Part shown: one piece after another, positions 1,358 to 63,446 of the stretch
Layout of the letters: every line of letters begins with the position of its first letter
Numbering within the stretch: the stretch's first letter is position 1
Assembly: GCA_027003075.1 (NCBI GenBank)
Contig: JALWYV010000005.1
Span: 23,198-87,197, forward strand
DNA: 64,000 nucleotides
Source of the DNA: a candidate division WOR-3 bacterium
GTDB taxonomy: Bacteria; Hydrothermota; Hydrothermia; LBFQ01
Direction: 5' to 3'
The notes under the pieces: generated by a model
Database searches by the model: none
What the model was told of the DNA's origin: nothing
The model's input: only the letters and a program-made list of their open reading frames with translations
Made by a program: the position numbers and the translations under genes

Positions 1358-4096
1358 ATGTTAGGTCTGGCACTTTTGGTTATAGGCTACGGTCCTTCCG
1401 ACTTCACCCTGCAAGGGGGGAGGAGGACCATAAACGCACTCGGCCCCAACTACTACAACGGGGCCTATCAGGGCGACTTCGGTTTCGTCCTGAACTTCTT
1501 CAGTATTAACGGATTCATAAATTCCAACGTTACGTACGAGGACGTCTCCGCCGGTACAGAGCAGTATCAGGACGGTTTCTATTCCCTGAGGGATAGGTTC
1601 GGTCTTGGGATAGGGTTCAAGTACCTTGAGCTGGCCGTAGGTGGATCCTACTTCTTTGAGGCGTGGGATAAGGTAGCGTACTCCGGCAGGAAGTACGCCG
1701 ACAACGTCCACTCCCACGGCCCCGGAGACGCCTACGCCGGCGGTAAGATCATGCTTCCCTTCCACGGTGAGAAGATGTCCGTGAGTGTGGGCGGATCCTT
1801 CATCTACACCTTCCCCAGGATATTTGATATCCAGATAGCCCATGAGAGAGATCTCACGAAGGACAACTACGTATCCGATTCCCGTGGCTGGTACCAGAAG
1901 GGCGGAGTGTTCCGCACCTTCACCTACGGTGGCCCCAGCTGGGACGCCCGTTTCCTCTTTACCTTCCTTCCCAACAACAAGTACATAGAGTTCAACGTGA
2001 ACGTAGGGTACTCCCCCCGCAACCCCGACGACAACGAGGACGACGTTACTATCATAGGGTCCTCCCTGCTCTTTCACCTTCAGTCCTTCCATCCCTTCTT
2101 TGAGATCGTGCTTGAGGACTGGAAGAACGGACACGATACCTATGGGGACGCCCCTCTGTACCTCACGGGAGGCTTTAACATAGAAACCGGTACGGGTGTA
2201 ATGTGGTCCTTCGGTATAGAGAAGCTCCTGTGGTACGACGGCTCCACCATAAGGTCGGAGAGGCAGGGAGCTCCCAAACTTGATGAGTACGTCAAGTACG
2301 ACCCCGACGCACCCTCGGATCATAACGTGAACATCCTCACCAGACCCAAGTGGTGGTTCATAACGTGGAACCCTCAGGTCGGTGCATGGCTCGCCCTAAG
2401 CTACACCTTCGTGCCTCCCTACGAGAAGAAACCCGAGAAGAAGAAGCCCGAAGTCAAGCCCACGTACATAGCAGGTGTGGTTATGGACGCCCGTACCCAG
2501 AAGATGGTGGGCGGAGCGAAGGTCATACTGAAGGAGAAGGACATATCCGTAATAACGGGTGACGACGGAGCCTACAAGTTTGAGAACCTTGAGCCCGGTT
2601 CCTACACCGTGATGGTTCAGGCTCAGGGGTATGCTCCCCAGAGCGCTGTGGTGAACCTTGAGCCGGGTAAACCCGCCATAAAGAACTTTGAACTCAAACC
2701 TGCTCAGACCTATGCCATCATAGGTGTGGTCTACGATAAGGAGAGCAACACCCCCATAGGCGGTGCCAAGGTTATAATCAAGGAGACGGGGGACTCCGTA
2801 ATCACTCAGGACGACGGTGCCTACAGGTTCTCCAACGTCCTGCCCGGCACCTATACCCTGATATTCACGGCCCCCGGATACAAGGGCTACACGGCCGTGG
2901 TTGCTGTTGAGGGCGGAACGGTCACCAAAGACGCCTATCTGGCAAAGGCCGAGCAGCCGAAGAAGGTCCAGAAGGTGGAGAAGCCCAGGATAGGGGCCAT
3001 AACCGGAGTTGTCACCGACGCCAAGAGCGGCGCACCTCTCTCCGGTGTTCAGATAATACTCAAGGAAAAGAACCTTACCCATACGACGGATCAGACGGGT
3101 GCCTTCCGGTTTGACAGCCTGCCCGAGGGTACCTACACCGTATCCTTCAACAGGGCCGGTTACGTCCCCCGTACGGAGATCGTAAACGTCAAGGCCGGTT
3201 CCCCCACGGTGTTCAACGTGTCCCTCGCTCCCGTTGAGAAGAACGTGGGTACGCTCTTAGGCAAGGTCATAGACAAGGAGACCGGCAATCCCATAGCCGG
3301 TGCCGTTGTTTCGGTTGAGGGCGTGGGTTCCGCCCAGACGGATCAGAGCGGTCTGTACCGCCTTGAGAACGTACCCGTAGGTGCGAAGACCGTTAAGGTG
3401 GCCGCCCCCGGATATAAGGAGGTCGCCGAGGTCATGAAGATCGCCAGGGGCGACAACGTCAAGAACTTCGCCCTTGAGCCGATGGTAGTTAAGGGATCCA
3501 TCGTCATAAGCGTCGTTGACAAGGACAGCAAGAAACCCATAGCAAACGCCACCATCACTTTCCTCACGGGCAACTTCGGCCCCTACACCACGGACGCCAA
3601 CGGTGTGGTCACGGTTAAGGATATACCCGCCGGAACCTACACGATAAAGGTAACGGCCGGCAAGTACGCTCCCCAGCAGAAGACCGTGGTCGTTGAAAAG
3701 AACCGCACCAAAGAGGTCACCTTTGAGCTCGTGAAGAAGGGTACGGAGATCACCTTCCGTAACATCTACTTTGACGTGAACAAGGCCACCCTGAGGCCAG
3801 ACGCCGAACCCGCCCTCAAACAGATCTGCCAGTTCCTCAAGGAGAACCCCACGGTGATAGTGGAGATTCAGGGTCATACCGACGAGCGCGGTTCCGCTTC
3901 CTACAACCTCAGACTCTCTCAGGCCCGGGCCGAGTCCGTACGCCAGTGGCTCATAAACAACGGTTGCGCCACGCCCGACCGCCTCGTTGCCAAGGGGTAC
4001 GGTGAGAGTATGCCCGTTATAAAGAACGCCAAGACCGAAGCCGAACATCAGCTCAACCGACGCGTCGTGATAAAGGTTCTGGGCGAGAAGAAGTAG
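1358..4096 (+). CDS. Outer-membrane protein: N-terminal beta-barrel-like region, about 5 carboxypeptidase-regulatory-like repeats, C-terminal OmpA domain
   Basis: Repeats of GxVxD..T..PI.GA.V..T...G.Y....PG.YT; OmpA motifs IYFD, IQGHTDERG, YNLRLSQARA, LNRRV. Confidence 0.9.
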   Translation: MLGLALLVIGYGPSDFTLQGGRRTINALGPNYYNGAYQGDFGFVLNFFSINGFINSNVTYEDVSAGTEQYQDGFYSLRDRFGLGIGFKYLELAVGGSYFFEAWDKVAYSGRKYADNVHSHGPGDAYAGGKIMLPFHGEKMSVSVGGSFIYTFPRIFDIQIAHERDLTKDNYVSDSRGWYQKGGVFRTFTYGGPSWDARFLFTFLPNNKYIEFNVNVGYSPRNPDDNEDDVTIIGSSLLFHLQSFHPFFEIVLEDWKNGHDTYGDAPLYLTGGFNIETGTGVMWSFGIEKLLWYDGSTIRSERQGAPKLDEYVKYDPDAPSDHNVNILTRPKWWFITWNPQVGAWLALSYTFVPPYEKKPEKKKPEVKPTYIAGVVMDARTQKMVGGAKVILKEKDISVITGDDGAYKFENLEPGSYTVMVQAQGYAPQSAVVNLEPGKPAIKNFELKPAQTYAIIGVVYDKESNTPIGGAKVIIKETGDSVITQDDGAYRFSNVLPGTYTLIFTAPGYKGYTAVVAVEGGTVTKDAYLAKAEQPKKVQKVEKPRIGAITGVVTDAKSGAPLSGVQIILKEKNLTHTTDQTGAFRFDSLPEGTYTVSFNRAGYVPRTEIVNVKAGSPTVFNVSLAPVEKNVGTLLGKVIDKETGNPIAGAVVSVEGVGSAQTDQSGLYRLENVPVGAKTVKVAAPGYKEVAEVMKIARGDNVKNFALEPMVVKGSIVISVVDKDSKKPIANATITFLTGNFGPYTTDANGVVTVKDIPAGTYTIKVTAGKYAPQQKTVVVEKNRTKEVTFELVKKGTEITFRNIYFDVNKATLRPDAEPALKQICQFLKENPTVIVEIQGHTDERGSASYNLRLSQARAESVRQWLINNGCATPDRLVAKGYGESMPVIKNAKTEAEHQLNRRVVIKVLGEKK

Positions 4097-4117
4097 AGGA
4101 GAAAAAACCTTCCTATC

Positions 4118-4145
4118 GGGCGGGGACTGAGGTCCCCGCCCTTTT
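4118..4145 (+). terminator. Intrinsic terminator
   Basis: GGGCGGGGAC-TGAG-GTCCCCGCCC followed by TTTT. Confidence 0.8.
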
Positions 4146-4176
4146 CGTTTAAACACCACCGTAAAATACCAGTTCT

Positions 4177-5217
4177 ATGATCTGGATGATTCTGGTACAG
4201 GGTGGCGATGCTGACTTCGGCATCGTTGAGGAAGTCAAGGGTAAAAGAGCAAAGTTCTACGCTCTGGAGGGAATAATGGGGCTATGGTGGGGAAAGGACA
4301 GGCAGTACTACAGGGGGGATCTGGCGTTCCAGATGCAGTACGATGAGGGTTTCTACGGCAGGTTCTCTCTGGTTTCCTTCAACGAGTACGCTCTGCCGCC
4401 TTCTGTGGGTGTTAAGGAACTCTACGTTGAGAAAGCCTTTGATAACGGGTTAGACGTTAAGTTCGGTCTGGGACCCATATACTGGGAGAACGGTGTTTTG
4501 TTCGGAGATTACGTAGGGGGAAACCCCTTCTTTGAGGTGTTCTTCGGTAAGGAGATATGGATAGACCTCCTCCTGTACAGGGTAAACTCCAGCCTCGGAG
4601 CAGGCCTCAGGAGCGCATTTGACCTCGGCAACTTCGGACTCACGGTGTACGGTGTCTACGATACTACCCGGGCGGGATACGTTGGTCTATCCGTAGGTCT
4701 GGATCTGCCTTTCTGGACGTTATCGCTTGAGGCCACAGGTGAAAAGGACTCCTCCGGATACGAAGGGGCGTACCTGCTCTACACCTTCGTCCGGCCGGGA
4801 AGGTGGTTCGTCGGTTTAATGTCCTATTCCTTCACGTCCGGGTTTGACAGGATAACTGCTCAGGGTCTGGATCTGGATCCGGATAGGTCCCCCTTCTTCG
4901 GTGTCTCCACACCCCTGACCTATAACATGCCCGGAATACCCTGGAGCAACCCACAGAACACGTCCGCCGAGGTCCTGAGGTTCGGTTTCACCCACGTCCT
5001 GAACGAAGACTGGAAGATGACTCCCATATTTGATCTGGGAGCATACCAGTCCGTGGCCATGGACCTGAAAAACAACAACTCTCTCCTCGCCGACGTTCAC
5101 CTCAGGTTCGACTGGACGGACACGTATTACGTGGGTCTTTCGGCCGGAGCAGTCGTACAGGACACCACTTTTTCCTGGGGTGTTGCAGCCTACACGGTGA
5201 AGAACTTCAGCTTCTGA
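4177..5217 (+). CDS. Putative outer-membrane beta-barrel/porin
   Basis: Alternating hydrophobic/aromatic beta-strand pattern; C-terminal Phe (KNFSF). Confidence 0.6.
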   Translation: MIWMILVQGGDADFGIVEEVKGKRAKFYALEGIMGLWWGKDRQYYRGDLAFQMQYDEGFYGRFSLVSFNEYALPPSVGVKELYVEKAFDNGLDVKFGLGPIYWENGVLFGDYVGGNPFFEVFFGKEIWIDLLLYRVNSSLGAGLRSAFDLGNFGLTVYGVYDTTRAGYVGLSVGLDLPFWTLSLEATGEKDSSGYEGAYLLYTFVRPGRWFVGLMSYSFTSGFDRITAQGLDLDPDRSPFFGVSTPLTYNMPGIPWSNPQNTSAEVLRFGFTHVLNEDWKMTPIFDLGAYQSVAMDLKNNNSLLADVHLRFDWTDTYYVGLSAGAVVQDTTFSWGVAAYTVKNFSF

Positions 5218-7853: not shown

Positions 7854-7859
7854 GACTCT

Positions 7860-11835: not shown

Positions 11836-12273
11836 TTACTCCTTATCCCGATTACGGAGATTTAAAAGAGCCAAAACGGCTTCCGCGGCCTCTTCACCTT
11901 TATTCCCGAACTTTCCACCCGCCCTGTTCAATCCCTGCTCCAGACTGTCAACTGTAAGTACTCCCAGACCTACAGGTACATTCCTATCAACTGCTACCTT
12001 AAGCAGGGAGGAGATAACCGCAGAGGAGAGGTGATCCGCGTGGGAAGTTTCACCCTTCACTATACACCCTAAGACGACAAAACCTTCGTATTCCCCCTTT
12101 GCAGAAAGTATGGATACAGCCTGAGGTAATTCAAAAGAGCCGGGGACCCATACCACTTCGTACGAGCCCCCGGCTTCATCTATTTTCCTTATCGCACCTT
12201 CAACGAGCCTCTCCGTAATGACGGAGTTGAAGCGGCTCGCTACGATGCATATCTTACTTCTGTTTTCCTTCAC
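11836..12273 (-). CDS. ribH: 6,7-dimethyl-8-ribityllumazine synthase
   Basis: ASRFNSVITERL, VPGSFELP, GCIVKGETSH, GNKGEEAA. Confidence 0.95.
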   Translation of the reverse strand: MKENRSKICIVASRFNSVITERLVEGAIRKIDEAGGSYEVVWVPGSFELPQAVSILSAKGEYEGFVVLGCIVKGETSHADHLSSAVISSLLKVAVDRNVPVGLGVLTVDSLEQGLNRAGGKFGNKGEEAAEAVLALLNLRNRDKE

Positions 12274-13846
12274 CTTCCCCCTTGTCGCTCCCTTCGGGCA
12301 GGAGTACGTACACCTCTACCCTGCGGTCCTTGGCCAGACCCTTACCCGTGGGCTCAAAGATGGTGTAGTTGGCCACCTCCTCAAATCGGCTCTCGTCCAG
12401 ATCAAACTGCCTGAGGAGGTACTCCTTCACGGCGAGTGCCCTCTTCTTGGAAAGGAGTTCGTTGTAGAAGGCGCCTCCCCTGCGGTCGGCGTGTCCCCTT
12501 ATAACGACCTTGGCGTAAGGCTCCTTCATAAGGATCTCACCGACCTTGTTGAGCTCCTTCTGGTACCTGGGCTTTATTATGGTCTTGTCGGTATCAAAGT
12601 AAACCACGGCGACCAGTTTGGGCTTACGGGAAAGCTTCTTGTAGAGTTTGACCTTTAGGACGGCGTCGGTCATGAGGTTCACACCCACGTCTATGGGCTG
12701 ATAGTTCTCCTCGTCCTTGGAGATGGTAAGCAGGTAATTGGAGGCGGGGAGGCTATCGTTCCTGTAGGTGCCGCTCTGGTCGGTCGTTCCTTCGGTAGTA
12801 ACTTTACCCACGATCTTCACCTTGGCGCCCTGTATGGGCTCACCGGAGAGGGAGTCAACCACGATAACCATGAGGGTACGGGGACCCTTTTCCTCCACAG
12901 CCTGTACTACGGCAGGTCCACCGGGCCCCATCATCGTAGGACCGGCAGGTCCATAGATCCTCTCGGCTATACGTGCCGGGGAAACGTGGGCTCCAGCGAA
13001 GAGCTCCCAGTTCCACTCCCACTTTTCGGGCTTGTCGGGGGAGAGATAGTACCTGTTGACGTAGTAATTCATGGATATGTTGGTACCAGCGGAGAGAACG
13101 AGACCACCGTTGAAGAACCTGTACCGGATCATAGGAGTGGCAAAGAGGAAGTCCGTGTTGAAACTTATGGGCCCGTAGTACTTGAGCTCAAAGCCACTTT
13201 CAAGGTCGTAGTAACTGGTGAATATGCCGAGACCGAGAAAGAGCGGGTTCTCGGCAAGGCCACCCTCTTTGGTGTCAACGTTGTACCCGAAACCGAGACC
13301 GAGGTTTGCCAGAATGCGGGTGGACCACTGCTCGCTTATGAAATCGTATCCACCGGCTACACCGAGGCGACCTCCGAACAGACCCTCACGGACCTTGAAG
13401 TTGGTGGTATAGGAACCGACCTGTATCTCCCCAGCCTGCTTCTCTCCGGTAGGTACAAGGATACTTACGAGGGCAGATACGCCCCAGTTACGGCGGTTGA
13501 GAAACTGGTACTTGGCACCCAATTCAAAGTCTCTCATACCACCGAACCACCTGTCGGGCTGAGTGGTATCATCAAGCTGCCCTTTATTAAGCCAGTTTAT
13601 ACCCTTAAGGGTGGCGTATATTTCAAGGTTTCGCACGGGGACGGTGTTGATGGAACCCCATCCGAGTAGAAAGTTCTGTATACCGTAAGGGCTGCTCCAT
13701 ATTTTTTCCGCATATATGGTGGTTTCCAGATAGTTGAGGTAACCACCACTCACCAGCTTTTCCTGCGAGGCTCTCCAATCAAAAACATCAAAATACCCGC
13801 TCGCACCTGTATTGGAGAGGTAGCCTATCAGCATTAACATGGTCAT
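12254..13846 (-). CDS. Outer-membrane protein: beta-barrel-like region, one carboxypeptidase-regulatory-like repeat, OmpA domain
   Basis: VVDSLSGEPIQGAKV..TTDQSGTY; VYFDTDK, GHADRRG, YNELLSKKRA, DRRVEV. Confidence 0.85.
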   Translation of the reverse strand: MTMLMLIGYLSNTGASGYFDVFDWRASQEKLVSGGYLNYLETTIYAEKIWSSPYGIQNFLLGWGSINTVPVRNLEIYATLKGINWLNKGQLDDTTQPDRWFGGMRDFELGAKYQFLNRRNWGVSALVSILVPTGEKQAGEIQVGSYTTNFKVREGLFGGRLGVAGGYDFISEQWSTRILANLGLGFGYNVDTKEGGLAENPLFLGLGIFTSYYDLESGFELKYYGPISFNTDFLFATPMIRYRFFNGGLVLSAGTNISMNYYVNRYYLSPDKPEKWEWNWELFAGAHVSPARIAERIYGPAGPTMMGPGGPAVVQAVEEKGPRTLMVIVVDSLSGEPIQGAKVKIVGKVTTEGTTDQSGTYRNDSLPASNYLLTISKDEENYQPIDVGVNLMTDAVLKVKLYKKLSRKPKLVAVVYFDTDKTIIKPRYQKELNKVGEILMKEPYAKVVIRGHADRRGGAFYNELLSKKRALAVKEYLLRQFDLDESRFEEVANYTIFEPTGKGLAKDRRVEVYVLLPEGSDKGEGEGKQK

Positions 13847-13849
13847 AAG

Positions 13850-13922
13850 TGCCCCGCGAGGGACTCGAACCCCCGACCCGCGGATTAAGAATCCGCTGCT
13901 CTACCGACTGAGCTAGCGGGGC
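13850..13922 (-). tRNA. tRNA-Lys(CTT), CCA not encoded
   Basis: GCCCCGCTAGCTCAGTCGGTAGAGCA-GCGGA-TTCTTAA-TCCGC-GGGTCGGGGGTTCGAGTCCCTCGCGGGGCA cloverleaf. Confidence 0.95.
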
Positions 13923-14935: not shown

Positions 14936-15394
14936 TTACGTTCCGCTTCCGCCCTCCAACACCTTCACCTCCGGTATCTTACCATCAAAGTTTATCCACT
15001 TTCCCCCGCCGGTTATCTTCCACCGCCAGGAGACCTCGTATACCTTCTTGCTGGGTACGTGGACGGCCCGGGCGAAGTATATCACGAATACCGTATCCCC
15101 CTTCCGCTCCACCCTCCATCCGGAGGTATCCGGACGGGCCAGCTCGGGCATGTAGGCCACGTTTCCGCTGGCGGCCGCTTTTATTACCTTGCTCATAAAC
15201 TGGGGATCCCTCGCTCTCTTACCCTCGTATTGGGCGACTATTACCGCAACCCCTTTTCCTCCGGCCACTATCTCCTTCTGGGCTTCGGTGAGGTTGGCCT
15301 GCACCTTCTTTATGACAGCCTCATCCGAAAGGCTTCCGCCACCGCACCCGGCGATCAAACTACCTAAGAGCAACGCGGATATTACCTTACGCAT
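14936..15394 (-). CDS. Hypothetical lipoprotein
   Basis: MRKVISALLLGSLIAGC lipobox; TAAAAT 8 nt upstream. Confidence 0.75.
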   Translation of the reverse strand: MRKVISALLLGSLIAGCGGGSLSDEAVIKKVQANLTEAQKEIVAGGKGVAVIVAQYEGKRARDPQFMSKVIKAAASGNVAYMPELARPDTSGWRVERKGDTVFVIYFARAVHVPSKKVYEVSWRWKITGGGKWINFDGKIPEVKVLEGGSGT

Positions 15395-16366: not shown

Positions 16367-16420
16367 AAGATATAATGTTACGCCCGATTTGCCTGCAGGT
16401 GCGTCCTTAAAATCGCAGGC

Positions 16421-21085: not shown

Positions 21086-22107
21086 TCCAGATCCAGCCTC
21101 TGCTTTGCCCTCTTGTAGAACCTCTTAAGGTTGCGGATGATGCGTTTGAGTTTCTTTCTATCGGAAGACGGAGCCTCCTCGTAGTACTTCAGGGCAACTT
21201 CAAAGTACTTTATCGCCTCGTCAAACTTACCCAGAAAGTACTTGGTATAACCGAGGTAGTACGCGATGTATACCACGTTGTAGGGTACGTTCGGCTGATC
21301 CCTGAGTATCAGGTATAGTAGCCCTTCGTAAACGTCCTCCGCATCGTCAAACCGGCCTTCTCTTAAAAGCAATCCACCGTACACCCATCGGAAATACCGG
21401 CTCTCCGGGTACCTCTCAACGTAAGATCTCAGTATGGGTATGGCTTCTCTCGCCCGGCCTTCCCTCATGAGGACCCAGGCCAGCGTCAGGGCGGAGATAA
21501 CGGAGGTGTAGTGTCCCTTTCTCCATGCAAGTTTGAGGTACTCTATGCCTTTCTTTTTTCTCTCCTCCCGGTTTTTCACAAGAAAGAAGGTGGGGATTAT
21601 GCCTATGCGGTTGGGTGCCTTGGATAGGGCGTAGTTGTATATGCCCAGAGGGAAATAGGCGTCGTACAGTGTGGAGTCCTCCTCTATCGTGGCCTTCAGG
21701 GGTTTAACCCCCTCAAGGGCGTACTTCAGAGCTACCACGTAGTTCCCGGATCTGCCAGCGCGCATGGCCTTGTAGCCGTAGGACCCGGCTATAAAGAAGA
21801 GCATCCACGCCTTTTCCTTACCCTTTACTCCATCGGACAGGCGGGCCTTAGCCTTCTCCTCCGCAATTTTCATGTTCTTGAAGAATTCGTTCTCGTATCT
21901 GTTAGTGTGGTAGTCCTCCATGTAGTAATCGTAAATGGCGGCCTTAAAGAAGTAACCCACCGGTTCGTGGGGATAACGCTTTATGGCCTCGTTTATTACG
22001 GAGAGAGCGGCCCCGTACCTCTCGCGATACGTGTACTCCAGAGCAGTTAACACGAGGCTGTCCAGCTCAGGACTGAACGGTACTGCTGCTGGGATTAAGA
22101 GTATCAA
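21082..22107 (-). CDS. TPR-repeat protein
   Basis: TPR-like helices (DAYFPLGIYNY, YYLGYTKYFLGKFDEAIKYFEVAL); TAAAAT 8 nt before TTG. Confidence 0.8.
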   Translation of the reverse strand: MILLIPAAVPFSPELDSLVLTALEYTYRERYGAALSVINEAIKRYPHEPVGYFFKAAIYDYYMEDYHTNRYENEFFKNMKIAEEKAKARLSDGVKGKEKAWMLFFIAGSYGYKAMRAGRSGNYVVALKYALEGVKPLKATIEEDSTLYDAYFPLGIYNYALSKAPNRIGIIPTFFLVKNREERKKKGIEYLKLAWRKGHYTSVISALTLAWVLMREGRAREAIPILRSYVERYPESRYFRWVYGGLLLREGRFDDAEDVYEGLLYLILRDQPNVPYNVVYIAYYLGYTKYFLGKFDEAIKYFEVALKYYEEAPSSDRKKLKRIIRNLKRFYKRAKQRLDLE

Positions 22108-24529
22108 CGGGTGTTATTTTACCGGTGATGGACTCGTTCAGAGGTAGGTCGTAGAAGAACCCCCTGAAGAGTATCAGGTTTCCCGGTACGTCCTTGGTTA
22201 CGGCTACGGCGACCTCGTACTCTCTATGGCCGATCTTCAGGAGGGCCTTATCCCCGTCCTTAAGTCCCTGTTTCTCTGCGTACTCGGAGCCCACGAACAC
22301 AGTCTTTTCCTTCACGAAGGGTTTGTGTATCCTGTTTCTGAAGGCGTAGTAGGAGCCACGGTAGATGTCGTGCGTGTGCAGGAGTAGCAGCCCATCACGT
22401 TTCTCGCCTTTCACAGGGGTATACCCCTCAACGGCGAAATCGTACGATGCGAGCGGGTACCTGTAAACCCTCTTGAGTTTGGCTATGGTGGGAACGTAAT
22501 CGGGGTACGGCCTCTCCTCGTACGGCATGTCGTAAGGGTGGAAGTCAAGGTTCTGATAGACGAGAACGTTCTTAACCATCTCGTCAAACACATCGCGGGC
22601 GTTCCTCCACGGGGCGGTTCCACCGAGGCGGTTTATGAGGCTCTTGAATATCCACCAGGCAGGACGGCTACCCTCGTAGGGCCACAGGGCGTCTTTGCCG
22701 TACTGCACCCTCCCCTCAAGGTTGGTACGGGTACCTTCCTCCTCGTAAGGTACGGTTATGGGCAGAACGGCCGAGGCGTACTCCGTGGAGGGGTCCCAGA
22801 AGGAGGTCATAACCACAACGAAGGGGGTGTTCTCAAGGGCCTTAACCACCAGATTCCTGTCGTAGTACTCGTAGAGAGGCTCAACCTCCCAGAGGAAAAG
22901 AACGTCTATCTCACCGTTGGCTGCTTTCTGAAGGATCTCTCCAGTGGTGGAGCCGTCGGGGAAGGGTGTGAATTCAACGTCCACGAATCCCTGCCCGTTG
23001 GGGGCCGTCCTCAGGAGGAGGAACTTCACCCGGTCGTCCACTGCCGATACGTGGGCGAGATTGGACTGAGCTTCGGCGTCCATATCGTCCGGGAAGATGA
23101 GTAGGGGGGACTTAGCATCTTTAAACGCCTTCACCACGTCTGCAAGCTCCGGATCTGGCTCGTCAACGGTGAACTGGTAGGTAAGATAAGTTTCGCTTCC
23201 CGCAGGCACCTTCACCCACTCGGCCCATCCATCCCGTACGTACCTCTCCCTGTAGGGGTTCAGGACGAATATCCTGGCTCCCCTGCGGGCGGCTCTGACG
23301 AGGCGGATACCTATACCCGGAACGGTCTCTCTCACGTCCCCGAAGATGAATATGGCGTCAGCCTTATCTATATCGGCCACCTTCGCGGTTGAGGCGGAGT
23401 AACCCACCGCTCTCCTTATCGGATCCTCCTTAAAGGCGGCGTGGGGAGGACGGAAGTCCACGTCCTGCGTCATGAGGATCTCCTTGAACAGCCTTCGGCC
23501 GGCGTAGGCGGCTTCGTTCGTCCCCCTTCCACCGGATATAACGGCGATCCTCTTACCCTTCACGTTCTCGGCTACCCAGTCAAGGGCTATCTCCCAGTTG
23601 ACCTTTACCCACTTGCCGTCTCTGGACTTCAGGTGGGGATAGTCCACCCTGTCCTTGTGGTTGTAAACGTACTCGTGGGAGAACCTGTCCCTGTCCGTGA
23701 TCCAGAACTCGTTTACGTCGGGGTTCTCGCGGCCGTTTATCCGCACCACCTTGTGGACGTCCTCCCTCTTACCACCCTTCACCATCTTACCCTTCGTGTA
23801 GGGTTTGCGGCTTATCACCTCCACCGTAACGTTGGCACCGAGGGAGTCCTCGGGACTTATGGCCGGAACTTTCTCAATGTTCCACGGCCTCGTGTAGTAC
23901 TTGTAATCCCCACCGTTTATAGCTCCGACGGGGCAGATCTCAATGAGGTTGCCGGAGAACTCGTTGTTGACGAAGCGATCCTTCTCAGGCCCGAAGACGG
24001 TGTACCATCCCCTGTCAAAGACTGACCAGTCCTTACCTCCTCCTATCGTCCAGTAGAAGGTGGAACACTTGAAGCACTGGATACACCTGTGAGGTTCAAG
24101 GTCAAAGTAGGGACCGGCGTCGTGCTTGGGGAAAAGCCTCTTGGGGAAGGTGTACTTGCTGGTCGTGGGGCCGAAGAGGTAGGTTATTTCCTGAAGGTCA
24201 CACTCTCCACCCTTATCGCATATGGGACAGTCAAGGGGGTGGTTCGTCAGGAGCAGGGCCACAACGGACCTCTGGGTCTCCTTAACCGGTTCGGTTGTCG
24301 TCCATACCTTCATCCCGTTCTCAGCCCGTGTGGCGCACGCGGGCTTTAACCCCCTGCGTCCTCTCCGATCTTCAACCTCAACGAGACAGACCCTACACCC
24401 GGCCCATACAGGGAGTTTGGGATGATAACAAAAAACGGGGATCTTCTCTCCGTTCCTCCACGCTATATCAAGTAAGGTTTCGCCCTCTTTGAACTCAACT
24501 TCCTTACCGTTAAGCAGGATTTTTGCCAT
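22067..24529 (-). CDS. nuoG: NADH-quinone oxidoreductase subunit G-like protein
   Basis: FCYHPKL..GCRVC..PAC, NHPLDCPICDKGGECDLQ, RCIQCFKC..EFSGNLIEICPVGA. Confidence 0.9.
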   Translation of the reverse strand: MAKILLNGKEVEFKEGETLLDIAWRNGEKIPVFCYHPKLPVWAGCRVCLVEVEDRRGRRGLKPACATRAENGMKVWTTTEPVKETQRSVVALLLTNHPLDCPICDKGGECDLQEITYLFGPTTSKYTFPKRLFPKHDAGPYFDLEPHRCIQCFKCSTFYWTIGGGKDWSVFDRGWYTVFGPEKDRFVNNEFSGNLIEICPVGAINGGDYKYYTRPWNIEKVPAISPEDSLGANVTVEVISRKPYTKGKMVKGGKREDVHKVVRINGRENPDVNEFWITDRDRFSHEYVYNHKDRVDYPHLKSRDGKWVKVNWEIALDWVAENVKGKRIAVISGGRGTNEAAYAGRRLFKEILMTQDVDFRPPHAAFKEDPIRRAVGYSASTAKVADIDKADAIFIFGDVRETVPGIGIRLVRAARRGARIFVLNPYRERYVRDGWAEWVKVPAGSETYLTYQFTVDEPDPELADVVKAFKDAKSPLLIFPDDMDAEAQSNLAHVSAVDDRVKFLLLRTAPNGQGFVDVEFTPFPDGSTTGEILQKAANGEIDVLFLWEVEPLYEYYDRNLVVKALENTPFVVVMTSFWDPSTEYASAVLPITVPYEEEGTRTNLEGRVQYGKDALWPYEGSRPAWWIFKSLINRLGGTAPWRNARDVFDEMVKNVLVYQNLDFHPYDMPYEERPYPDYVPTIAKLKRVYRYPLASYDFAVEGYTPVKGEKRDGLLLLHTHDIYRGSYYAFRNRIHKPFVKEKTVFVGSEYAEKQGLKDGDKALLKIGHREYEVAVAVTKDVPGNLILFRGFFYDLPLNESITGKITPVDTLNPSSSTVQS

Positions 24530-24996: not shown

Positions 24997-26445
24997 GTTT
25001 ACAGCCTACCTATAAGGGATTGAAACTTGTAATACTCCCATGCATCTTTAACCTCCTTGCCATGTTTACAGCCTACCTATAAGGGATTGAAACTTACCTG
25101 CCAGCGCTTTACGCCGTCGTCGTAGTATTTGGTTTACAGCCTACCTATAAGGGATTGAAACGGCCGCTTAGGAGACCTATGGAGGTGTGAAAATGGGGTA
25201 CGTTTACAGCCTACCTATAAGGGATTGAAACCCAGCAGCCCTGGGCGTGGTCATGCCACGTTGATATGTTTACAGCCTACCTATAAGGGATTGAAACAAG
25301 GGGGTGAAAATGACTAAGCCTCGTATTCCCGATAGTTTACAGCCTACCTATAAGGGATTGAAACCCGCATCGCTGAATTCTGGCACGACCGGTATTCCCG
25401 TGTTTACAGCCTACCTATAAGGGATTGAAACATAATTCGGGATGTTCCCGTTCAAGGCGGCGGCGAAAACGTTTACAGCCTACCTATAAGGGATTGAAAC
25501 CGGCGAGGAGCGTCTTACCGAAACGACGGCCACAGGCGAGTTTACAGCCTACCTATAAGGGATTGAAACTCCGAGGAGTGCCACCATATAGTTGTTATAT
25601 CATGGGCGGTTTACAGCCTACCTATAAGGGATTGAAACTGCTTCATTTGAGTACTCAAGTTCCCAGACACGTTTGGGTTTACAGCCTACCTATAAGGGAT
25701 TGAAACAGGAACTCACGGAGGGACTTTTGCGGACTGGAGGTGGTTTACAGCCTACCTATAAGGGATTGAAACCGTGGAGTCCTCCGAAAACTGGCATACC
25801 CTCGTAGCCCGTTTACAGCCTACCTATAAGGGATTGAAACCCGGGGCAAGATGTGTTGCCGTGCAACCCAAGGCGGGTTTACAGCCTACCTATAAGGGAT
25901 TGAAACAGGCCATCAACCCGCCGCAGGACGTAAAGGAACTAATGTTTACAGCCTACCTATAAGGGATTGAAACTGATCCCCCGCCGTCCATACCTCCCCA
26001 TAGCAGGGATCCGTTTACAGCCTACCTATAAGGGATTGAAACCGGGCGGAGTCTGGTCCAGGAGCTGGAGGACTCCGCGTTTACAGCCTACCTATAAGGG
26101 ATTGAAACAAAGTATTTGGTCTGATTCTAACAACGTAAACGCCCAAAGTTTACAGCCTACCTATAAGGGATTGAAACTGATTCGCGTTCTATCCCGCACC
26201 CTACATAAGGATTCTGGTTTACAGCCTACCTATAAGGGATTGAAACAGCCTCATCTTTCACCTCCTTTTTCAGGTTTTCCGCAAGTTTACAGCCTACCTA
26301 TAAGGGATTGAAACGCCCTTAGAACATCCATATCAAAGTGTTTTCCGGGGGTTTACAGCCTACCTATAAGGGATTGAAACTAGTGCGATACGAGGACCAG
26401 GAGACAGAAGATAAGGTTTTCAGCCTACCTATAAGGGATTAACTC
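24997..26445 (+). CRISPR. CRISPR array, 22 repeats (last degenerate) and 21 spacers of about 35-40 nt; no adjacent cas genes
   Basis: 30-nt repeat GTTTACAGCCTACCTATAAGGGATTGAAAC; terminal copy GTTTTCAGCC...GGATTAAC at 26416; ATTGAAAC end typical of class 1 (I-B/III) repeats. Confidence 0.98.
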
Positions 26446-31390: not shown

Positions 31391-31606
31391 GCGGGTATTG
31401 TACCGACGACCTCTTTACCGACTTCAGAAAATCTCCATCTTACGGTCGGCACCCAACGGGGAGGTTCATCGTCGTTCCAGCAGAACGATCCGAACAGAAG
31501 GCGCTTCAATATCTACCGTTCCTCCACTTGACATACGGGTGAACTGTGGCCATTATTCTACACCGCATCAAGTTAACATAAGTTAAACACAAAAAGGAGG
31601 TGAACC

Positions 31607-33986: not shown

Positions 33987-34511
33987 ATGAAGAGGATGAT
34001 ACCCCTTCTTGTGGGAGTACTTTTCTTTGTCGGAGCGACCGGCGACAAGCCCTTATTCAAGGCCAAAGCCTCAGTTTTCGGTTTCAAGGATAAGAAGATA
34101 AAGGGTGAGGTCTTTTTCTACCAGTACCCAGATATGAGCGTCCACGTCTTTGGCAAGATAACCGGCCTTCCCAGGAACCGCACCTTCGCCATACACGTAC
34201 ACCAGTTCGGGGATTGCTCCTCACCCAAGGCCTCCGGTGGTCACTTTGATCCCTACCACAGTGGTAAACACGGCCACCCCAACGATCCTATAGGCACACA
34301 CCACTCAGGAGATATGCCCAACATAAAGAGCAACGGTAAGGGGGAAGCCCTGATAGATTTCCGTACTAAGGCCTTTACCGTGATACCCTCTCCCTATTCC
34401 GTACTCGGAAGGGCGGTTATAATCCACGCCGGTCCGGACGATTACAAGTCCCAGCCCGCAGGGAACGCCGGTTCCCGTATAGCCTGCGGAGTTATAGGTG
34501 TGGTGAAGTAG
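33987..34511 (+). CDS. sodC: Periplasmic Cu/Zn superoxide dismutase
   Basis: AIHVHQFGDC, GGHFDP, HGHP..HSGD, IIHAGPDD, GNAGSRIACGVI; signal peptide. Confidence 0.95.
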   Translation: MKRMIPLLVGVLFFVGATGDKPLFKAKASVFGFKDKKIKGEVFFYQYPDMSVHVFGKITGLPRNRTFAIHVHQFGDCSSPKASGGHFDPYHSGKHGHPNDPIGTHHSGDMPNIKSNGKGEALIDFRTKAFTVIPSPYSVLGRAVIIHAGPDDYKSQPAGNAGSRIACGVIGVVK

Positions 34512-40529: not shown

Positions 40530-40530
40530 G

Positions 40531-40614
40531 TGCCGGGAGTGGGACTCGAACCCACACGGGGATTACCCCGGGGGATTTTAAATCCCCTGCGTCTACCGAT
40601 TCCGCCATCCCGGC
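40531..40614 (-). tRNA. tRNA-Leu(TAA), CCA not encoded
   Basis: GCCGGGATGGCGGAATCGGTAGACGCA-GGGGA-TTTAAAA-TCCCC, long variable arm, GGTTCGAGTCCCACTCCCGGCA. Confidence 0.95.
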
Positions 40615-49888: not shown

Positions 49889-50101
49889 GGCGTGTATTCT
49901 AAGCGGAAAACGACCTTACCGAATACCCGGCCGGGAAATAATCAGTTTAAATTGGAGAAATTTACAGCGATCGTGGTCTCCGATATGTGCAAAATTATCC
50001 TTCACCATTCCCGGTAATTTTGCATAAAATTGAATAATTGTTTTTTATGATCAAATTGCATAATATTACCTTTCACATATATTCCCCTTTATACTACCTT
50101 C

Positions 50102-54142: not shown

Positions 54143-54943
54143 GTGAGGAAGTTTAGCGTTTTTACGATCGTTCTGATGTTTCCTTTGCTTCTCGCAGGGG
54201 AAACGGGAAAGGGTAACGTTCTGGACATCCTTCACGCACGTATGCTCTCGGACTCTGCGGGCGAAAGGATAAACGATTTGGGATCGGCCAGAAAGATGCA
54301 GGAGGCCTGCTCCCTCTCGGAGGAGGTAAAGAACGAAGCGGGAATACTCCTATCGTGTGGGGTGTTGGCCTTTCAGAGGGCGGCAGAAAAGGAATACGGG
54401 GAAGCGGACAGTCTCTACAACAGGGTCCTGAAGGTTCTCAGGGGTACGGATCTATCTGAGGAGAGGAAGAAGGAGTACGTATGGAGGATCTCAGACATGC
54501 TGGCCTTCGCCCATCTGGAGACCGGGAACTACACGGGGGCGTTGAAATACTACCGGATCGCCCTTGATAACTTCAGCCCAGTGTTCGGGGATACCCTCTA
54601 CGAGGCCTACGCCTACAACCGCATGGGTATGGCCTACCACCGGGCCGGAGAGTACGACAGGGCGGAGGAGTACTACCGTAGGGCTCTGAAAGCGGCGGGA
54701 AAGGGGGAGATGGTCGCCCGGATATACAACAACCTCGGCATGCTCTACTACGACCGCATAAACTACTCTAAGGCTCTGGAATACCTGCGGAAGGCCGAAA
54801 GGGTCCTGAAAGAGAGCGTCGGCGATAAGGCGAAGCAACTCGCCTACGTGTACGGTAACATGGCGGACGTATGCGAGGCTAAAGGGGATAGCACAAAGGC
54901 GAAGGAGTACAGGGAAAAGGCCCGGAGGATAGGGCAGCAGTAA
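54143..54943 (+). CDS. Exported TPR protein
   Basis: Canonical signal peptide; TPRs AYNRMGMAY, IYNNLGMLY. Confidence 0.8.
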   Translation: MRKFSVFTIVLMFPLLLAGETGKGNVLDILHARMLSDSAGERINDLGSARKMQEACSLSEEVKNEAGILLSCGVLAFQRAAEKEYGEADSLYNRVLKVLRGTDLSEERKKEYVWRISDMLAFAHLETGNYTGALKYYRIALDNFSPVFGDTLYEAYAYNRMGMAYHRAGEYDRAEEYYRRALKAAGKGEMVARIYNNLGMLYYDRINYSKALEYLRKAERVLKESVGDKAKQLAYVYGNMADVCEAKGDSTKAKEYREKARRIGQQ

Positions 54944-59564: not shown

Positions 59565-59774
59565 ATGCCCAAGGTAGGAGTAAGGAAACAGGAAGGCGAG
59601 ACCTTTGAGTCCATGCTGAGGAGGTTCAAGAAGCTCGTAGGCAGGGAGGGTATACTCAACGACTACCGTCGTCATCTCGTCTACGAAAAGCCCTCCGAGA
59701 TCCGTAAGAAGAAGGAGGCCATGAAGTGGAGGAAGATCCGGAGGAAACTCATGAAGATGATGGAGGAAGACTGA
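59565..59774 (+). CDS. rpsU: 30S ribosomal protein S21
   Basis: FESMLRRFKK, YEKPSEIRKKK. Confidence 0.93.
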   Translation: MPKVGVRKQEGETFESMLRRFKKLVGREGILNDYRRHLVYEKPSEIRKKKEAMKWRKIRRKLMKMMEED

Positions 59775-59781
59775 CCTCCGG

Positions 59782-61456: not shown

Positions 61457-62709
61457 TTCCCTATGTCCCTCCTGTAGTACATCCCCTCAAAGTGTATCTT
61501 CTCCATGGCCTCGTAGGCCCTGTTTCGGGCCTCTTCAAGCGTTTCCCCCGTGGCCACGACCGAAAGGACCCTGCCCCCGGAGGTTATCAACTGACCACCT
61601 TCCTCCTTTACGCCGGCGAGGAAAACGGCGTCGGCTATCCTTTCGGCCTCCTCAAGACCGGTTATAGGGAAGCCCGTTATGGGCCTCTCAGGGTACCCCC
61701 TAGATGCGGCGACGACGCAACAGGAGAAACGGGAAGGTTCTTTTATGAGATCTTCCTTCAGATTGCCCTCCGCCGCAGATACCACGACCTCCCCGAAGTC
61801 GTAATCCATAAGGGGCAGGATGGCCTGGGTCTCCGGATCGCCGAGCCGTACGTTGTACTCAAGGACGAAGGGTCCGTTCTCTGTCAGCATGAGGCCGAAG
61901 TAAAGGATACCTTTGTACTTAAGGCCCTCCCGTGCCAGCCCTTCAAAAGTCCGCCTTACGACGTTCTCCTCTATCAGGGATTTCGTCTGCTCGTCCAGAA
62001 CCACGGGAGATATGGACCCCATACCTCCGGTGTTGGGGCCGTCGTCCCCGTCCCTCAACCTCTTGTAGTCTCTGGCGTAAGCGAAGACCTTCCAGCGGCT
62101 GCCATCGGCTACGGCGAAGACGGAGACCTCTTCACCCCTGAGAAAACGCTCTATCACCACCCTCCTGGAGGCTTCGCCGAACTTCGCCCTGTTCATGAAC
62201 TGGTCAAGGGTGTTTATCGCCTCCCCAACGCTGCGAGCTATTACCACCCCCTTACCTCCGGCCAGACCGTCCGCCTTTATAACTATGGGGAACCTCTGCC
62301 CCTTCACGTACTCAACGGCGTCGTCAAACTCCTCCTCCGTAAAGACCTCAAAGTCCGCCGTGGGTACCCTGTACTTCTTTGCGAAGCTCTTGGCCCATAT
62401 CTTGCTCGCCTCCAGTCTGGCCGCTGCCCTGTTCGGAGCGAACACCTTCAGGCCTCTCCTCTCCCCCTCATCCGCTATCCCTAAGGCTATGGAGGTTTCT
62501 CCGCCGGGAAAGATCAGGTCAACACCGTTGTCAAGGGCGAAGTCCACGAGGGCGTTTATCTCACTCTCCTTTATTGGAACGTTCCTACCGTAACGGGCGG
62601 TGAAGGGGTTCCCCGGTGCGGTGAATATCTCAAACCCGACCTTTGACTGGGCCAGTTTCCAGACTATGGCGCTTTCCCTGCCTCCCTTTCCTACGACCAG
62701 GACCTTCAT
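61453..62709 (-). CDS. purD: Phosphoribosylamine--glycine ligase
   Basis: GKGGRE, KADGLAGGKGV, GPNTGGMG, EYNVRLGDPETQ, TSGGRVL. Confidence 0.97.
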   Translation of the reverse strand: MKVLVVGKGGRESAIVWKLAQSKVGFEIFTAPGNPFTARYGRNVPIKESEINALVDFALDNGVDLIFPGGETSIALGIADEGERRGLKVFAPNRAAARLEASKIWAKSFAKKYRVPTADFEVFTEEEFDDAVEYVKGQRFPIVIKADGLAGGKGVVIARSVGEAINTLDQFMNRAKFGEASRRVVIERFLRGEEVSVFAVADGSRWKVFAYARDYKRLRDGDDGPNTGGMGSISPVVLDEQTKSLIEENVVRRTFEGLAREGLKYKGILYFGLMLTENGPFVLEYNVRLGDPETQAILPLMDYDFGEVVVSAAEGNLKEDLIKEPSRFSCCVVAASRGYPERPITGFPITGLEEAERIADAVFLAGVKEEGGQLITSGGRVLSVVATGETLEEARNRAYEAMEKIHFEGMYYRRDIGK

Positions 62710-62711
62710 CT

Positions 62712-63446
62712 CTACCTCCCCAGAGAGAATTTGAGACCTACACTTACACGCATTCCACCAAGATCCTCTTTGGCGTTGATCTCGTTCTTATCAGGATCCG
62801 GAGGCCTATCCTTCACCGAGAGAGATTTATTTTTGGTGTTGAACACCCAGTAGGCCACACCCCTATCCTCGTTCCCCCCGGAGTCCCTGTCCACGTACTC
62901 ACCCTCGTAGCCGGAGAACGAGAGGACGTCGTACCCTACCCTCACGGCGAGGGCGAGTTTGTCCGAAATGGAAACGTCACCCCCGAAGGCCATACCCATA
63001 CCCACGGACGAGGCCGACAGGGAGGCCTCCCTTATCCCCCAAGTATGTACGCCGAGTACGTTGATATGGGAGGAGTCGTAAACCGAGAGGCTGGAGAAGC
63101 CGAGGAGCATCTTAACGCCGGCGTACATCCGGAAGGTTTCCGTCAGGGGATAGGAGAAGCCTATCGGCAGGCCGAATATGAAGTTCATGAGGCTGTGCTT
63201 ACGGTGAAAGTAAACCGTCGCCCCAGACGTTTTTTTGCTGTCCCCACCGTTTACGGAGGTGTAAAGTATAGCAGGTTCTATACCGACGTCCAGAAAGGTC
63301 GCACGGTATCCCATACCCACACCGAACCCCAGACCCACCTTCTGGTTGGGCAGGTCAAAGTCCTCGCTCCTCATCTCGTCAACCCACAGGTTGTAGTGAG
63401 TTAGGGAGACGGTTCCGAACTGAAAGAGGGGATAAAGGTACAACAT
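62712..63446 (-). CDS. Outer-membrane beta-barrel protein (OmpA/OmpW-like strands)
   Basis: Amphipathic strands (GFGVGMGY, RMYAGVK, MRVSVGLKFSL); likely start ATG 63446 (TAAAAT 8 nt upstream). Confidence 0.65.
   Translation of the reverse strand: MLYLYPLFQFGTVSLTHYNLWVDEMRSEDFDLPNQKVGLGFGVGMGYRATFLDVGIEPAILYTSVNGGDSKKTSGATVYFHRKHSLMNFIFGLPIGFSYPLTETFRMYAGVKMLLGFSSLSVYDSSHINVLGVHTWGIREASLSASSVGMGMAFGGDVSISDKLALAVRVGYDVLSFSGYEGEYVDRDSGGNEDRGVAYWVFNTKNKSLSVKDRPPDPDKNEINAKEDLGGMRVSVGLKFSLGR

Follow-up and report, generated by a model that had tools for sequence, protein, structure and literature searches.

Most proteins of a candidate division WOR-3 bacterium and its relatives that by their domains belong in the outer membrane or outside the cell begin with hydrophobic peptides of only about 7-10 residues that lack lysine and arginine; comparison with relatives indicates that these are probably genuine, drastically shortened Sec signal peptides and a heritable trait of the WOR-3 ('Pyropristinus'/Caldipriscus-type) lineage. 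In its typical form such a signal would consist of Met, five to eight Leu/Ile/Phe/Val residues and then A, S or G, in some cases with a Gln behind it, and would end by residue 7-10. Our search of the published literature found no account of ultrashort signals or of an absent signal recognition particle (SRP) in these bacteria.

Results

Eight proteins with short, uncharged N-termini had been singled out by a sequence-only reading of the window (the whole stretch of DNA analysed, 64,000 nucleotides, from a hot-spring bacterium), and at all eight positions the N-termini are as quoted there and coincide with the starts of open reading frames (Table 1). That reading had also held each start to be fixed by an adjacent -10 box or tRNA end, which we find to be so for seven of the examples and for one, respectively. 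The -10-like hexamer lies 6-9 nt 5' of the start, and all seven boxes have the promoter mark of this genome, a C 6 nt 5' of the hexamer. An in-frame stop is found 6-72 nt upstream of seven of the eight starts (6 nt for the TTG at 22107); the frame of the 16366 gene is open for 222 nt upstream, and its start depends solely on a weak -10 box. The junction of tRNA-Lys and the 13846 gene is also kept in genus g2, and orthologues of the 22107 TPR protein open with a hydrophobic stretch too. Canonical signals are present, as the same reading had noted, on the lipoproteins starting at 1282 (-), 7497 (+) and 15394 (-), on the Cu/Zn superoxide dismutase SodC and on the TPR protein at 54143.

Table 1. 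Short-signal genes of the window, the elements that fix their starts, and control genes
Feature	Coordinates	Strand	N-terminus or remark
Lipoprotein (control)	869..1282	-	canonical signal MMRAILIISVVLTLSC; own promoter leaderless-type
-10 box TATAAT	1343-1348	+	9 nt before ATG 1358
OmpA-like outer-membrane protein, 912 aa	1358..4096	+	MLGLALLVIG
-10 box TAAAAT	4162-4167	+	9 nt before ATG 4177
Probable outer-membrane barrel, 346 aa	4177..5217	+	short signal MIWMILVQ; no Pfam match
Second OmpA-like protein (CarboxypepD_reg + OmpA), 530 aa	12254..13846	-	MTMLMLIG
tRNA-Lys	13849..13922	-	3' end 2 nt before ATG 13846
Lipoprotein (control)	14936..15394	-	canonical signal MRKVISALLLGSLIAGC
Protein, no family assigned, 315 aa	15419..16366	-	MLFLLSQ; weak -10 box TAACAT 16375-16380
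TPR protein, 341 aa	21082..22107	-	TTG start read as MILLIPAA; -10 box TAAAAT 22116-22121
Protein, 232 aa	30692..31390	-	MLFILSF; -10 box TACAAT 31397-31402
Cu/Zn superoxide dismutase (control)	33987..34511	+	canonical signal MKRMIPLLVGVLFFVGATG
Membrane-protein ORF, 86 aa	40269-40529	-	TTG 40529; second tRNA-fixed start in window
tRNA-Leu	40530..40614	-	3' end abuts TTG 40529
Protein, no family assigned, 647 aa	50102..52045	+	MLILIVF; -10 box TATACT 50090-50095
TPR protein (control)	54143..54943	+	GTG start; canonical signal MRKFSVFTIVLMFPLLLAG
Outer-membrane beta-barrel (Pfam OMP_b-brl)	62712..63446	-	MLYLYPLFQ; -10 box TAAAAT 63455-63460

The claim that domain content marks these proteins as exported is upheld for the 1358 and 13846 proteins by their OmpA domains and for the 63446 protein by its barrel domain. 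The 1358 protein is composed of an N-terminal part of ~370 aa, five CarboxypepD_reg domains and a C-terminal OmpA domain, and its predicted signal occupies the first 10 codons (1358-1387), directly before a conserved YGPS. For the 4177 protein the evidence is circumstantial: the N-termini of its homologues (5/5) are 7-9 hydrophobic residues ending in Q, their C-termini (5/5) read F/V-S-F, and an Atlas lead is porin-like. The 31390 protein has an Atlas lead, the sole family named among its look-alikes being DUF1207, with no link to export established.

Short, uncharged N-termini are confirmed as real and extend far beyond these eight examples. A longest-ORF test, in which the start is the first ATG/GTG/TTG past the upstream in-frame stop so that an upstream signal is impossible, placed 282 of 1961 genes (14.4%) in a class defined by Met and 5-8 hydrophobic residues without K/R. 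The same test applied to 200 kb of E. coli K-12 returned 7 of 158 genes (4.4%), none of them exported (Fisher p = 0.00015). The hydrophobic stretch runs to residue 8 (median), and in 73% of the 282 it stops there or earlier, giving a core of 5-8 residues, at the lower edge of the 7-15 or so that make up an ordinary h-region. The logo of the class is uncharged and Leu-rich (M1; L2 51%; L3-5 37-45%), with A/S/G at positions 6-8 and no K/R. Of 313 short-class genes, 140 have an in-frame stop no more than 12 nt upstream, so that a signal could not fit, and 202 have one no more than 30 nt upstream; 71 of the other 111 have a strict -10 box. True starts further upstream are thereby largely refuted. 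The classifier admits false positives (4 cytoplasmic enzymes and 5 integral membrane proteins among 36 annotated members) and so, given also the 4.4% in E. coli, the true class would be nearer 8-10% of genes than 14%.

Domain matches show that many members of the class are predicted exported proteins. Scanning of 397 kb gave 61 members, 36 of them with a Pfam match, and 22 of the 36 belong to envelope or secreted families, including Peptidase_C25 (twice), TonB receptor, FadL, OmpH/Skp, cytochrome c, Big_5, FG-GAP/PQQ, BNR, LTD and others. BamA of this genome starts MILLLIGQ. The peptides thus occupy the position of Sec signals, N-terminal on proteins that work outside the cytoplasm. They had been thought a minority class, but on the 32 proteins matching type IX secretion system (T9SS) C-terminal domains the short N-terminus is instead the commonest form, with 19 short, 5 canonical-like, 2 with K/R and a short core, and 6 unclassed.

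Alignment with relatives ties the short peptides to ordinary signals. Orthologues of the OmpA-like protein read MLGLALLVIG|YGPS in genus g1 and MLELILLA|YGPS in genus g2, and in family f5 the orthologue, sited behind AGGAGG, reads MKGKGAILVALMTSALWA|YGPS, its K-containing signal of 18 residues ending at the same conserved site. The residue just before YGPS is G, A or S in all the short orthologues, and the canonical orthologue has ...LWA there. The BamA signal measures 8 residues in f1, 9 in f5 and 12-13 in f4 and f13, versus 18-23 residues with K/R in f12, f15, f18 and f20. Within this genome, paralogues begin MKYNLIYFLLLLFTANLMAQ... and MLVLLFAQ... The trait appears to be heritable: orthologues in 11 further genomes of this family show the same short N-termini, and 47 short-class proteins of genome G000 have a reciprocal best hit in G007, where the counterpart is short in 24 cases and canonical in 1. 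Because they align with the end of canonical 18-23-residue signals in orthologues and paralogues, the short peptides would be truncated Sec signals. The comparison thus supports the core of the sequence-only reading, a lineage-specific minimal class of export signal, but not its suggestion of a separate kind, since the peptides appear to be the end of an ordinary Sec signal.

The composition of the class is distinctive. No basic n-region is present, K/R being excluded from residues 2-7 by the class definition and absent there from the logo, and an acidic flank stands in for it: the five residues past the core carry on average 0.67 acidic and 0.27 basic residues in the strict short class (n=237) versus 0.32 and 0.35 in canonical non-lipoprotein signals (n=117). 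The class length of 7-10 residues lies below the 15-30 residues of Sec signals, and many members have no clear AxA-type site, the residue past the core often being just D or E. Gln after the short signal is weakly enriched (20% vs 12% expected), and a domain search of this genome did not find Glu_cyclase_2. Other signal types were considered and rejected: a lipobox-like motif for signal peptidase II occurs in just 9 of 313 short-class members versus 76 of 193 canonical-like ones; the twin-arginine of Tat signals is absent, residues 2-7 being free of R/K; and the logo has neither the conserved G or E nor the basic leader of type IV pilin-like (class III) signals.

The short signals are not bound to leaderless transcripts. 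Leaderless-type promoters are certainly frequent: 623 of 1991 genes have a TAnAAT hexamer whose end lies 6-9 nt ahead of their first start codon, the background being ~4.6 per position, and a -10 box lies close before the first start in 685 of 1961. The GlmS start under this spacing rule is exactly MCGIVG, and the hexamer would set transcription to begin at or next to the start codon, the hallmark of leaderless mRNAs. Leaderless-type genes fall in the short class in 194 of 987 cases. Short N-termini are also found behind AGGAGG sites in this genome and in relatives in which the -10 arrangement precedes just 9-11% of genes; because many lie behind good Shine-Dalgarno sites, short signals are independent of leaderless mRNAs.

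The genome encodes SecY, SecA, YidC, trigger factor and one type I signal peptidase, with one match each to PF00344, PF07517 and PF10502. To our knowledge SRP is near-universal and usually counted among universal genes, yet the class to which this bacterium belongs seems to lack it, judging from genome searches. Neither the Ffh M domain (PF02978) nor PF00448 (E <= 1e-10) was found in 41 class genomes, nor SRP RNA (RF00169) in 11, with controls recovered in 14/14, 14/14 and 12/14 cases, respectively. All three components are present in 37-38 of 61 genomes sampled across the phylum. A phmmer search with E. coli Ffh and FtsY gave no match among 19,196 six-frame ORFs of this genome, and the same queries match an FtsY of the phylum at 1e-42 to 1e-78. 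Ffh, FtsY and SRP RNA were likewise not found in a second clade of the phylum.

A link between SRP loss and short signals is not clean, with one SRP-bearing genome, 200 kb of it, sampled for signals. In genome G084, SRP RNA was not found and one SRP-type GTPase matched, and signals are mostly canonical (24 short, 50 canonical, of 343); in the SRP-bearing families f13, f14 and f27, BamA signals are uncharged too, but 11-13 residues long. The export machinery was inspected for lineage-specific changes. The branch of this genome's SecY is very long (0.88 vs median 0.096), and 15 SecY substitutions are private to the class; the SecY pore ring shows no prlA-type change, the isoleucines (E. coli 82, 86, 191, 278, 408) being conserved, and the signal peptidase I is normal.

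Discussion

We infer Sec export, cleavage, a mode of orientation and a causal tie to the missing SRP as follows. The short peptide would be the last third of an 18-23-residue signal, namely its c-region and the end of its h-region; the n-region and the initial half of the h-region would have disappeared. It would still interact with SecA and with the lateral gate of SecY. The free alpha-amino group of Met1 and the acidic stretch past the core may replace Lys/Arg in holding the N-terminus in, the membrane potential helping to draw the acidic stretch across, and the single type I signal peptidase would then cleave behind the small residue. Since Ffh, FtsY and SRP RNA were not found in the class, targeting would be SRP-independent and presumably falls wholly to SecA together with trigger factor. 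Most lipoproteins retain long signals, possibly owing to a requirement of Lgt and LspA for an anchor that spans the membrane.

A point against this reading is that a 5-8-residue hydrophobic core is at or below the working minimum in E. coli. In an alternative that the shortness of the core also favours, the N-terminus would initiate translocation by Sec but remain uncleaved on the mature protein as a weak peripheral anchor or periplasmic tail, its length being insufficient to cross the bilayer. The many members in which D or E takes the place of a clear AxA-type site fit such a fate, as does the prevalence of long signals among lipoproteins, which are held in the membrane for modification (76 canonical vs 9 short lipoboxes). 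We nevertheless consider it unlikely: BamA, OmpA-like, TonB-receptor and FadL barrels must leave the inner membrane, A/S/G is enriched at positions 6-8 in a genome that encodes a normal signal peptidase I, and the OmpA-like orthologues keep G, S or A at the position just ahead of where the canonical orthologue would be cleaved. Cleavage is favoured over an anchor on account of this retained small -1 residue and of the barrels.

It could also be supposed that the peptide matters little, having decayed to a stub while a relaxed, prl-like translocon or signals in mature domains drive export. In E. coli, prlA alleles permit the export of proteins whose signals are defective, targeting signals inside mature domains have been described, and the fast-evolving SecY with its private substitutions, together with the SRP components not found, would suit this view; against it, the pore-ring isoleucines are conserved without a prlA4-type change, and the stub is kept Leu-rich, uncharged and acid-flanked across genera, a strong constraint that argues for selection on the peptide itself, so that decay appears quite improbable. 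Least credible, and in our judgement very improbable, is an artefact of upstream true starts or of cytoplasmic proteins. The open frame and weak box of the 16366 gene and the 4 cytoplasmic enzymes among the 36 annotated members could be read this way, but not the in-frame stops within 12 nt, the recurrence of short N-termini in the 11 other genomes, or the OmpA, TonB-receptor, FadL, Skp, cytochrome c and T9SS-tail domains of the members; moreover, the 31390 protein appears in a public protein collection with the same start.

Shortened Sec signals remain the preferred reading, and they admit a bolder extension that we advance only tentatively, as one that may well prove wrong: a whole class of free-living thermophiles may have dropped SRP, its receptor and its RNA, with the Sec signal cut to a charge-free, acid-flanked stub of 7-10 residues, and SecA and a fast-evolving SecY may recognise this minimal signal and do all membrane targeting. 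If so, the lineage would have a secretion system that is naturally free of SRP, and its signal peptides would be the shortest natural ones known. Should uncharged peptides of 7-10 residues indeed export BamA, porins and T9SS cargo throughout the lineage, the secretomes of these uncultured bacteria, and perhaps of others, are seriously underestimated, the least that SecA/SecY recognition and signal peptidase I demand of a signal has to be rethought on the basis of a natural system rather than mutants, and very short export tags become usable in engineering. With Ffh, FtsY and SRP RNA not found, membrane-protein targeting without SRP becomes a directly testable question. A cultured WOR-3 isolate exists (PMC12285271).

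Comparison with known systems

Textbook signal peptides have n-, h- and c-regions, the first of them basic, and prediction tools and proteomic filters assume as much. A typical length of 15-30 residues is given in a review (PMC12190922), and a proteomic survey accepted just signals of 15-35 residues with early basic residues (PMC3509430) and would therefore miss short ones. Like canonical Sec signals cut by signal peptidase I, the peptides described here are N-terminal, carry small residues behind a hydrophobic core and align at the same position; they differ in being just 7-10 residues long, with a core of 5-8, an acidic flank and no basic (K/R) n-region. The 'Q-rule' of Bacteroidota describes signal peptidase I substrates with Gln at +1 behind signals of normal length and charge. 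The present genome resembles this system in having T9SS cargo and some signals, short or canonical, that end in A/S-Q (...LMAQ, ...FAQ, ...SQ), but differs in its weak Q enrichment and in that Glu_cyclase_2 was not found.

Engineered E. coli signals with no n-region charge or with minimal poly-Leu cores show that hydrophobicity can make up for missing charge, and prlA suppressors, with their altered SecY, that even very poor signals can function. Those are laboratory constructs of reduced efficiency, whereas here the short signal is the natural majority form, borne by the essential BamA, and SecY has no prlA-type pore change. In Deinococcus deserti, the transcription start of 47% of mRNAs coincides with the initiation codon, and that of 60% coincides with it or lies very near; the same paper describes ordinary signal peptides (PMC4007540). 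The likeness is that in a sizeable fraction of genes a -10 box precedes the start codon by a few nucleotides; the differences are the short signals, which here occur also on non-leaderless genes, and the conserved C 5' of the hexamer. Bacteria can also do without SRP elsewhere: Streptococcus mutans is said to live without SRP components as a mutant. E. coli suppressor strains, too, reportedly grow independently of it in the laboratory (PMC7844537; bioRxiv 10.1101/2021.01.06.425660). The present bacteria, which by genome search appear to be without Ffh or FtsY, are comparable, but in place of mutants they would constitute an entire class occurring in nature, joined by another clade of the phylum.

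Gene starts and size of the short class

The source genome (G000; 2.11 Mb in 62 contigs, 93% complete, with the window lying within contig C5) was surveyed for ultrashort N-termini, defined as Met followed by 5-8 hydrophobic residues without K/R, using a longest-ORF test in which the start is the first ATG, GTG or TTG past the upstream stop, hence no longer N-terminus is possible. The sequence-only reading had weighed the doubt that canonical upstream signals were missed; the class persists under this test, with 282 of 1961 ORFs (14.4%), or 210 under a tighter definition. Of 313 short-class genes, 140 have the upstream stop no more than 12 nt away, and 202 have it no more than 30 nt away. Picking starts by any -10 or Shine-Dalgarno (SD) site was dropped in favor of the longest-ORF test because Leu, Val and Met codons inside signals get picked, which makes it noisy. 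In the E. coli K-12 control (200 kb), 7 of 158 ORFs fell in the short class; by sequence and length against the annotation, six are AraB, MraY, RseP, YaaA, KefF and FolK, with no exported soluble protein among these six, and the seventh is a 61-aa ORF to which no annotated gene was assigned. Identical genes, with the same N-termini and lengths, occur on contig pairs C18/C46 and C20/C45 of G000, so part of the assembly is redundant and duplicates enter a few of the counts.

All eight example starts in the window are present with the N-termini previously quoted, as is the -10 box or tRNA end said to adjoin each: a hexamer lies 6-9 nt upstream in seven (TATAAT, TAAAAT three times, TACAAT, TATACT and TAACAT), each with a C placed six nt before the hexamer, and the start at 13846 is 2 nt past the end of a tRNA-Lys. 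An in-frame stop is found 6-72 nt upstream in seven of the eight; the exception, 16366, has 222 nt of open frame upstream. The canonical-signal controls (three lipoproteins, SodC and the TPR protein at 54143) are also as described, and several of them share the promoter arrangement of the examples.

Across the genome, 623 of 1991 ORFs have a TAnAAT whose end lies 6-9 nt ahead of their first start codon, gene calls and class assignments both being our own heuristics; the counts at the four positions are 160, 140, 187 and 137 over a background of ~4.6. Upstream of the -10 box in these 623 leaderless-type genes, the base six nt away is C in 92% and the base three nt away is C in 65%, with a T-rich stretch at 7-9 nt; no -35 element appears in their logo. 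Window examples of such promoters are 1337-1348 and 4156-4167. The -10 spacing rule places the start of GlmS, whose mature N-terminus must be Cys, exactly at MCGIVG. A same-strand ORF begins within 0-9 nt after the tRNA end at 19 of 49 tRNAs, among them probable L28, MurA, MnmA and Prs genes, identified by N-terminal sequence alone, and two OmpA-like paralogues, each after a tRNA-Lys. The junction between tRNA and OmpA-like gene is conserved in genus g2. Given these abutting starts, the mRNA 5' ends of such genes may be produced by tRNA 3' processing.

Coordinates of tRNA-fixed starts (in the window) and of SecY
Feature	Position	Adjoining start
tRNA-Lys	13849-13922	13846
tRNA	40530-40614	40529
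SecY	G000:C20:22850-24187	

Among 987 G000 genes with a promoter-type start, an uncharged hydrophobic run begins at residue 2 in 194. In the short-class logo M is followed by L (51%) and then by L/I/F/V, A/S/G become more frequent at positions 6-8, and the first polar residue stands at positions 7-13. The five residues after the core carry 0.67 acidic vs 0.27 basic residues per protein, compared with 0.32 vs 0.35 in canonical non-lipoprotein signals, and the net charge over ten residues is -0.56 in the short class vs -0.01 in the canonical. Lipobox motifs number 76 in the canonical class and 9 in the short class; a few lipoproteins have ultrashort signals, e.g. MIPLILGGC and MFWVALAGC. Gln at positions 6-13 is modestly enriched (20% vs 12%), too weakly for a Q-based rule, and Glu_cyclase_2 was not found in G000.

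Proteins of the short class

A Pfam scan of the 61 short-class members lying wholly inside a sampled 397 kb of G000 gave 36 with a match at E <= 1e-5, comprising 22 envelope or secreted proteins, 4 cytoplasmic enzymes, 5 integral membrane proteins and 5 uninformative repeat proteins. Window members include OmpA and OMP_b-brl domains, and BamA of G000 begins MILLLIGQ. The T9SS tail PF18962 has 32 matches in G000 at E <= 0.01 (10 over the cut-off), of which 19 have short signals, 5 canonical-like signals (two of them duplicates, from C18 and C46), 2 K/R with a short core, and 6 were unclassed; by eye, the last six comprise two gene fragments, two ambiguous cases, and one each of the short and canonical types. 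A large protein collection contains six relatives of the protein starting at 4177. One is the window's own protein with its start called three codons downstream; each of the remaining five has an N-terminus of 7-9 hydrophobic residues closing with Q and a C-terminus of F/V-S-F. The AlphaFold model of the 4177 protein (6-row alignment, mean pLDDT 37) was left out of the argument.

The OmpA-like proteins at 1358-4096 and 12254-13846 carry one to five CarboxypepD_reg (transthyretin-like) domains between an N-terminal membrane part and a C-terminal, peptidoglycan-binding OmpA domain; from this domain order, the run could be a long periplasmic spacer. At about 25400-26300 of the window, ORFs translate to repeated LQPTYKGLKP units, which suggests a CRISPR array translated as if it were coding.

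Relation to canonical signals

The sequence-only reading proposed a second, minimal class of export signal. Alignment points instead to the short N-termini being truncated canonical signals, as the OmpA-like proteins, BamA and paralogues all align in this way. In each of the family's 11 other genomes the OmpA-like orthologue opens with 8-10 hydrophobic residues, followed by a conserved YGPS, and a -10 box precedes its start. In family f5, which belongs to the same taxonomic class, the orthologue has AGGAGG upstream, and its signal, 18 residues long and including K, leads through ...LWA to the same YGPS. BamA signal length is graded across 30 genomes of the phylum, and the pairing of short with canonical signals recurs among paralogues inside G000. 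Reciprocal best hits in genus g2 exist for 47 short-class proteins, and the g2 counterpart is short in 24 cases and canonical in one, the rest falling in other bins; these comparisons indicate that the short class is inherited.

BamA signals by family, and share of genes in which an uncharged hydrophobic N-terminus stops at residue 10 or earlier (relatives sampled over 200-400 kb each; they share kinship, so counts across them are not independent; the SRP-bearing sample is one genome)
Quantity	Family or genome	Value
BamA signal	f1	8 residues
BamA signal	f5	9 residues
BamA signal	f4, f13	12-13 residues
BamA signal	f12, f15, f18, f20	18-23 residues, with K/R
Share of genes	G000	13.3%
Share of genes	G017	12.9%
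Share of genes	G027	11.6%
Share of genes	G007 (genus g2)	9.9%
Share of genes	G020	5.3%
Share of genes	G084 (another class)	5.2%
Share of genes	G066 (SRP-bearing, 200 kb)	2.3%

Secretion machinery and signal recognition particle

SecY, SecA, YidC, trigger factor and SPase I are each encoded once in G000. SecB was not found in G000, by a search that matched only 4 of 14 control genomes, 3 of them over the cut-off. In the SecY tree the taxonomic class of G000 forms one clade (support 99/95), and the terminal branch of G000 is 0.88 vs a median of 0.096 (31 rows). Inspection of the export machinery for lineage-specific changes, as proposed earlier, shows 15 SecY columns private to the class (e.g. 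E. coli positions 239, 350, 405, 428 and 441); the SecY pore ring is unaltered except for I187A, and SPase I has the expected Ser motif (GSMEDT).

Signal recognition particle (SRP) components were not detected in this class. The Ffh M domain PF02978 was found in 0 of 41 class genomes (31 of them at least 90% complete) and in 14 of 14 controls, the SRP GTPase domain PF00448 in 0 of 41 at E <= 1e-10, and the SRP RNA RF00169 in 0 of 11. A phmmer search with E. coli Ffh and FtsY and a phylum FtsY against 19,196 six-frame ORFs of G000, a sequence free of N, gave a best E of 0.018, and in the positive control E. coli Ffh and FtsY match the phylum FtsY at 1e-42 to 1e-78. Among 61 genomes sampled from the phylum, strong matches to Ffh and FtsY occur in 38 and the SRP RNA in 37, the sets coinciding by family; five have one weaker GTPase match and no RNA, and eighteen have nothing real. 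A second SRP-less clade (f11, f17, f24, f25 and f26) stands elsewhere on the SecY tree, with 7 rows and support 100/99.

Proposed account

The most economical account is that the short N-termini would be shortened Sec/SPase I signals, handled by SecA without SRP, the orientation of the signal being set by its free N-terminal amine together with the acidic flank. A permissive, prlA-like SecY is argued against by the pore-ring and prlA positions, which are unchanged except for I187A; we take these positions to be those of E. coli, where the Ile, Phe and Ser were confirmed in the sequence. YidC (G000:C42) has a Lys-rich stretch right after its first membrane helix. Its C-terminal tail is short, and the idea of a ribosome-binding YidC tail standing in for SRP was rejected.

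Leaderless mRNAs are not the cause of the short signals, because such signals also lie behind good SD sites in G000, and behind SD sites in G020 and G027, where the -10 arrangement accounts for 9-11% of genes. The evidence tying shortened signals to SRP loss is no more than suggestive, and a one-to-one relation was rejected: G084 lacks SRP RNA, yet its signals are mostly canonical, and in the SRP-bearing families f13, f14 and f27 the BamA signals are uncharged but longer.

We found no description of ultrashort signals or SRP loss in the lineage papers searched or by full-text search, subscription journals lying outside its scope. The terms "signal peptide" and "leaderless" are absent from PMC4791363 and PMC11696919, and "signal peptide", SRP, ffh and ftsY from PMC12542636 and PMC12285271; full-text search found no paper pairing WOR-3 with the signal recognition particle. 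A literature search of the same scope on short signal peptides with leaderless mRNAs and on natural SRP loss likewise returned nothing relevant. In reviews and surveys the rule for signal peptides is a length of 15-30 or 15-35 residues with a basic n-region (PMC12190922, PMC3509430).
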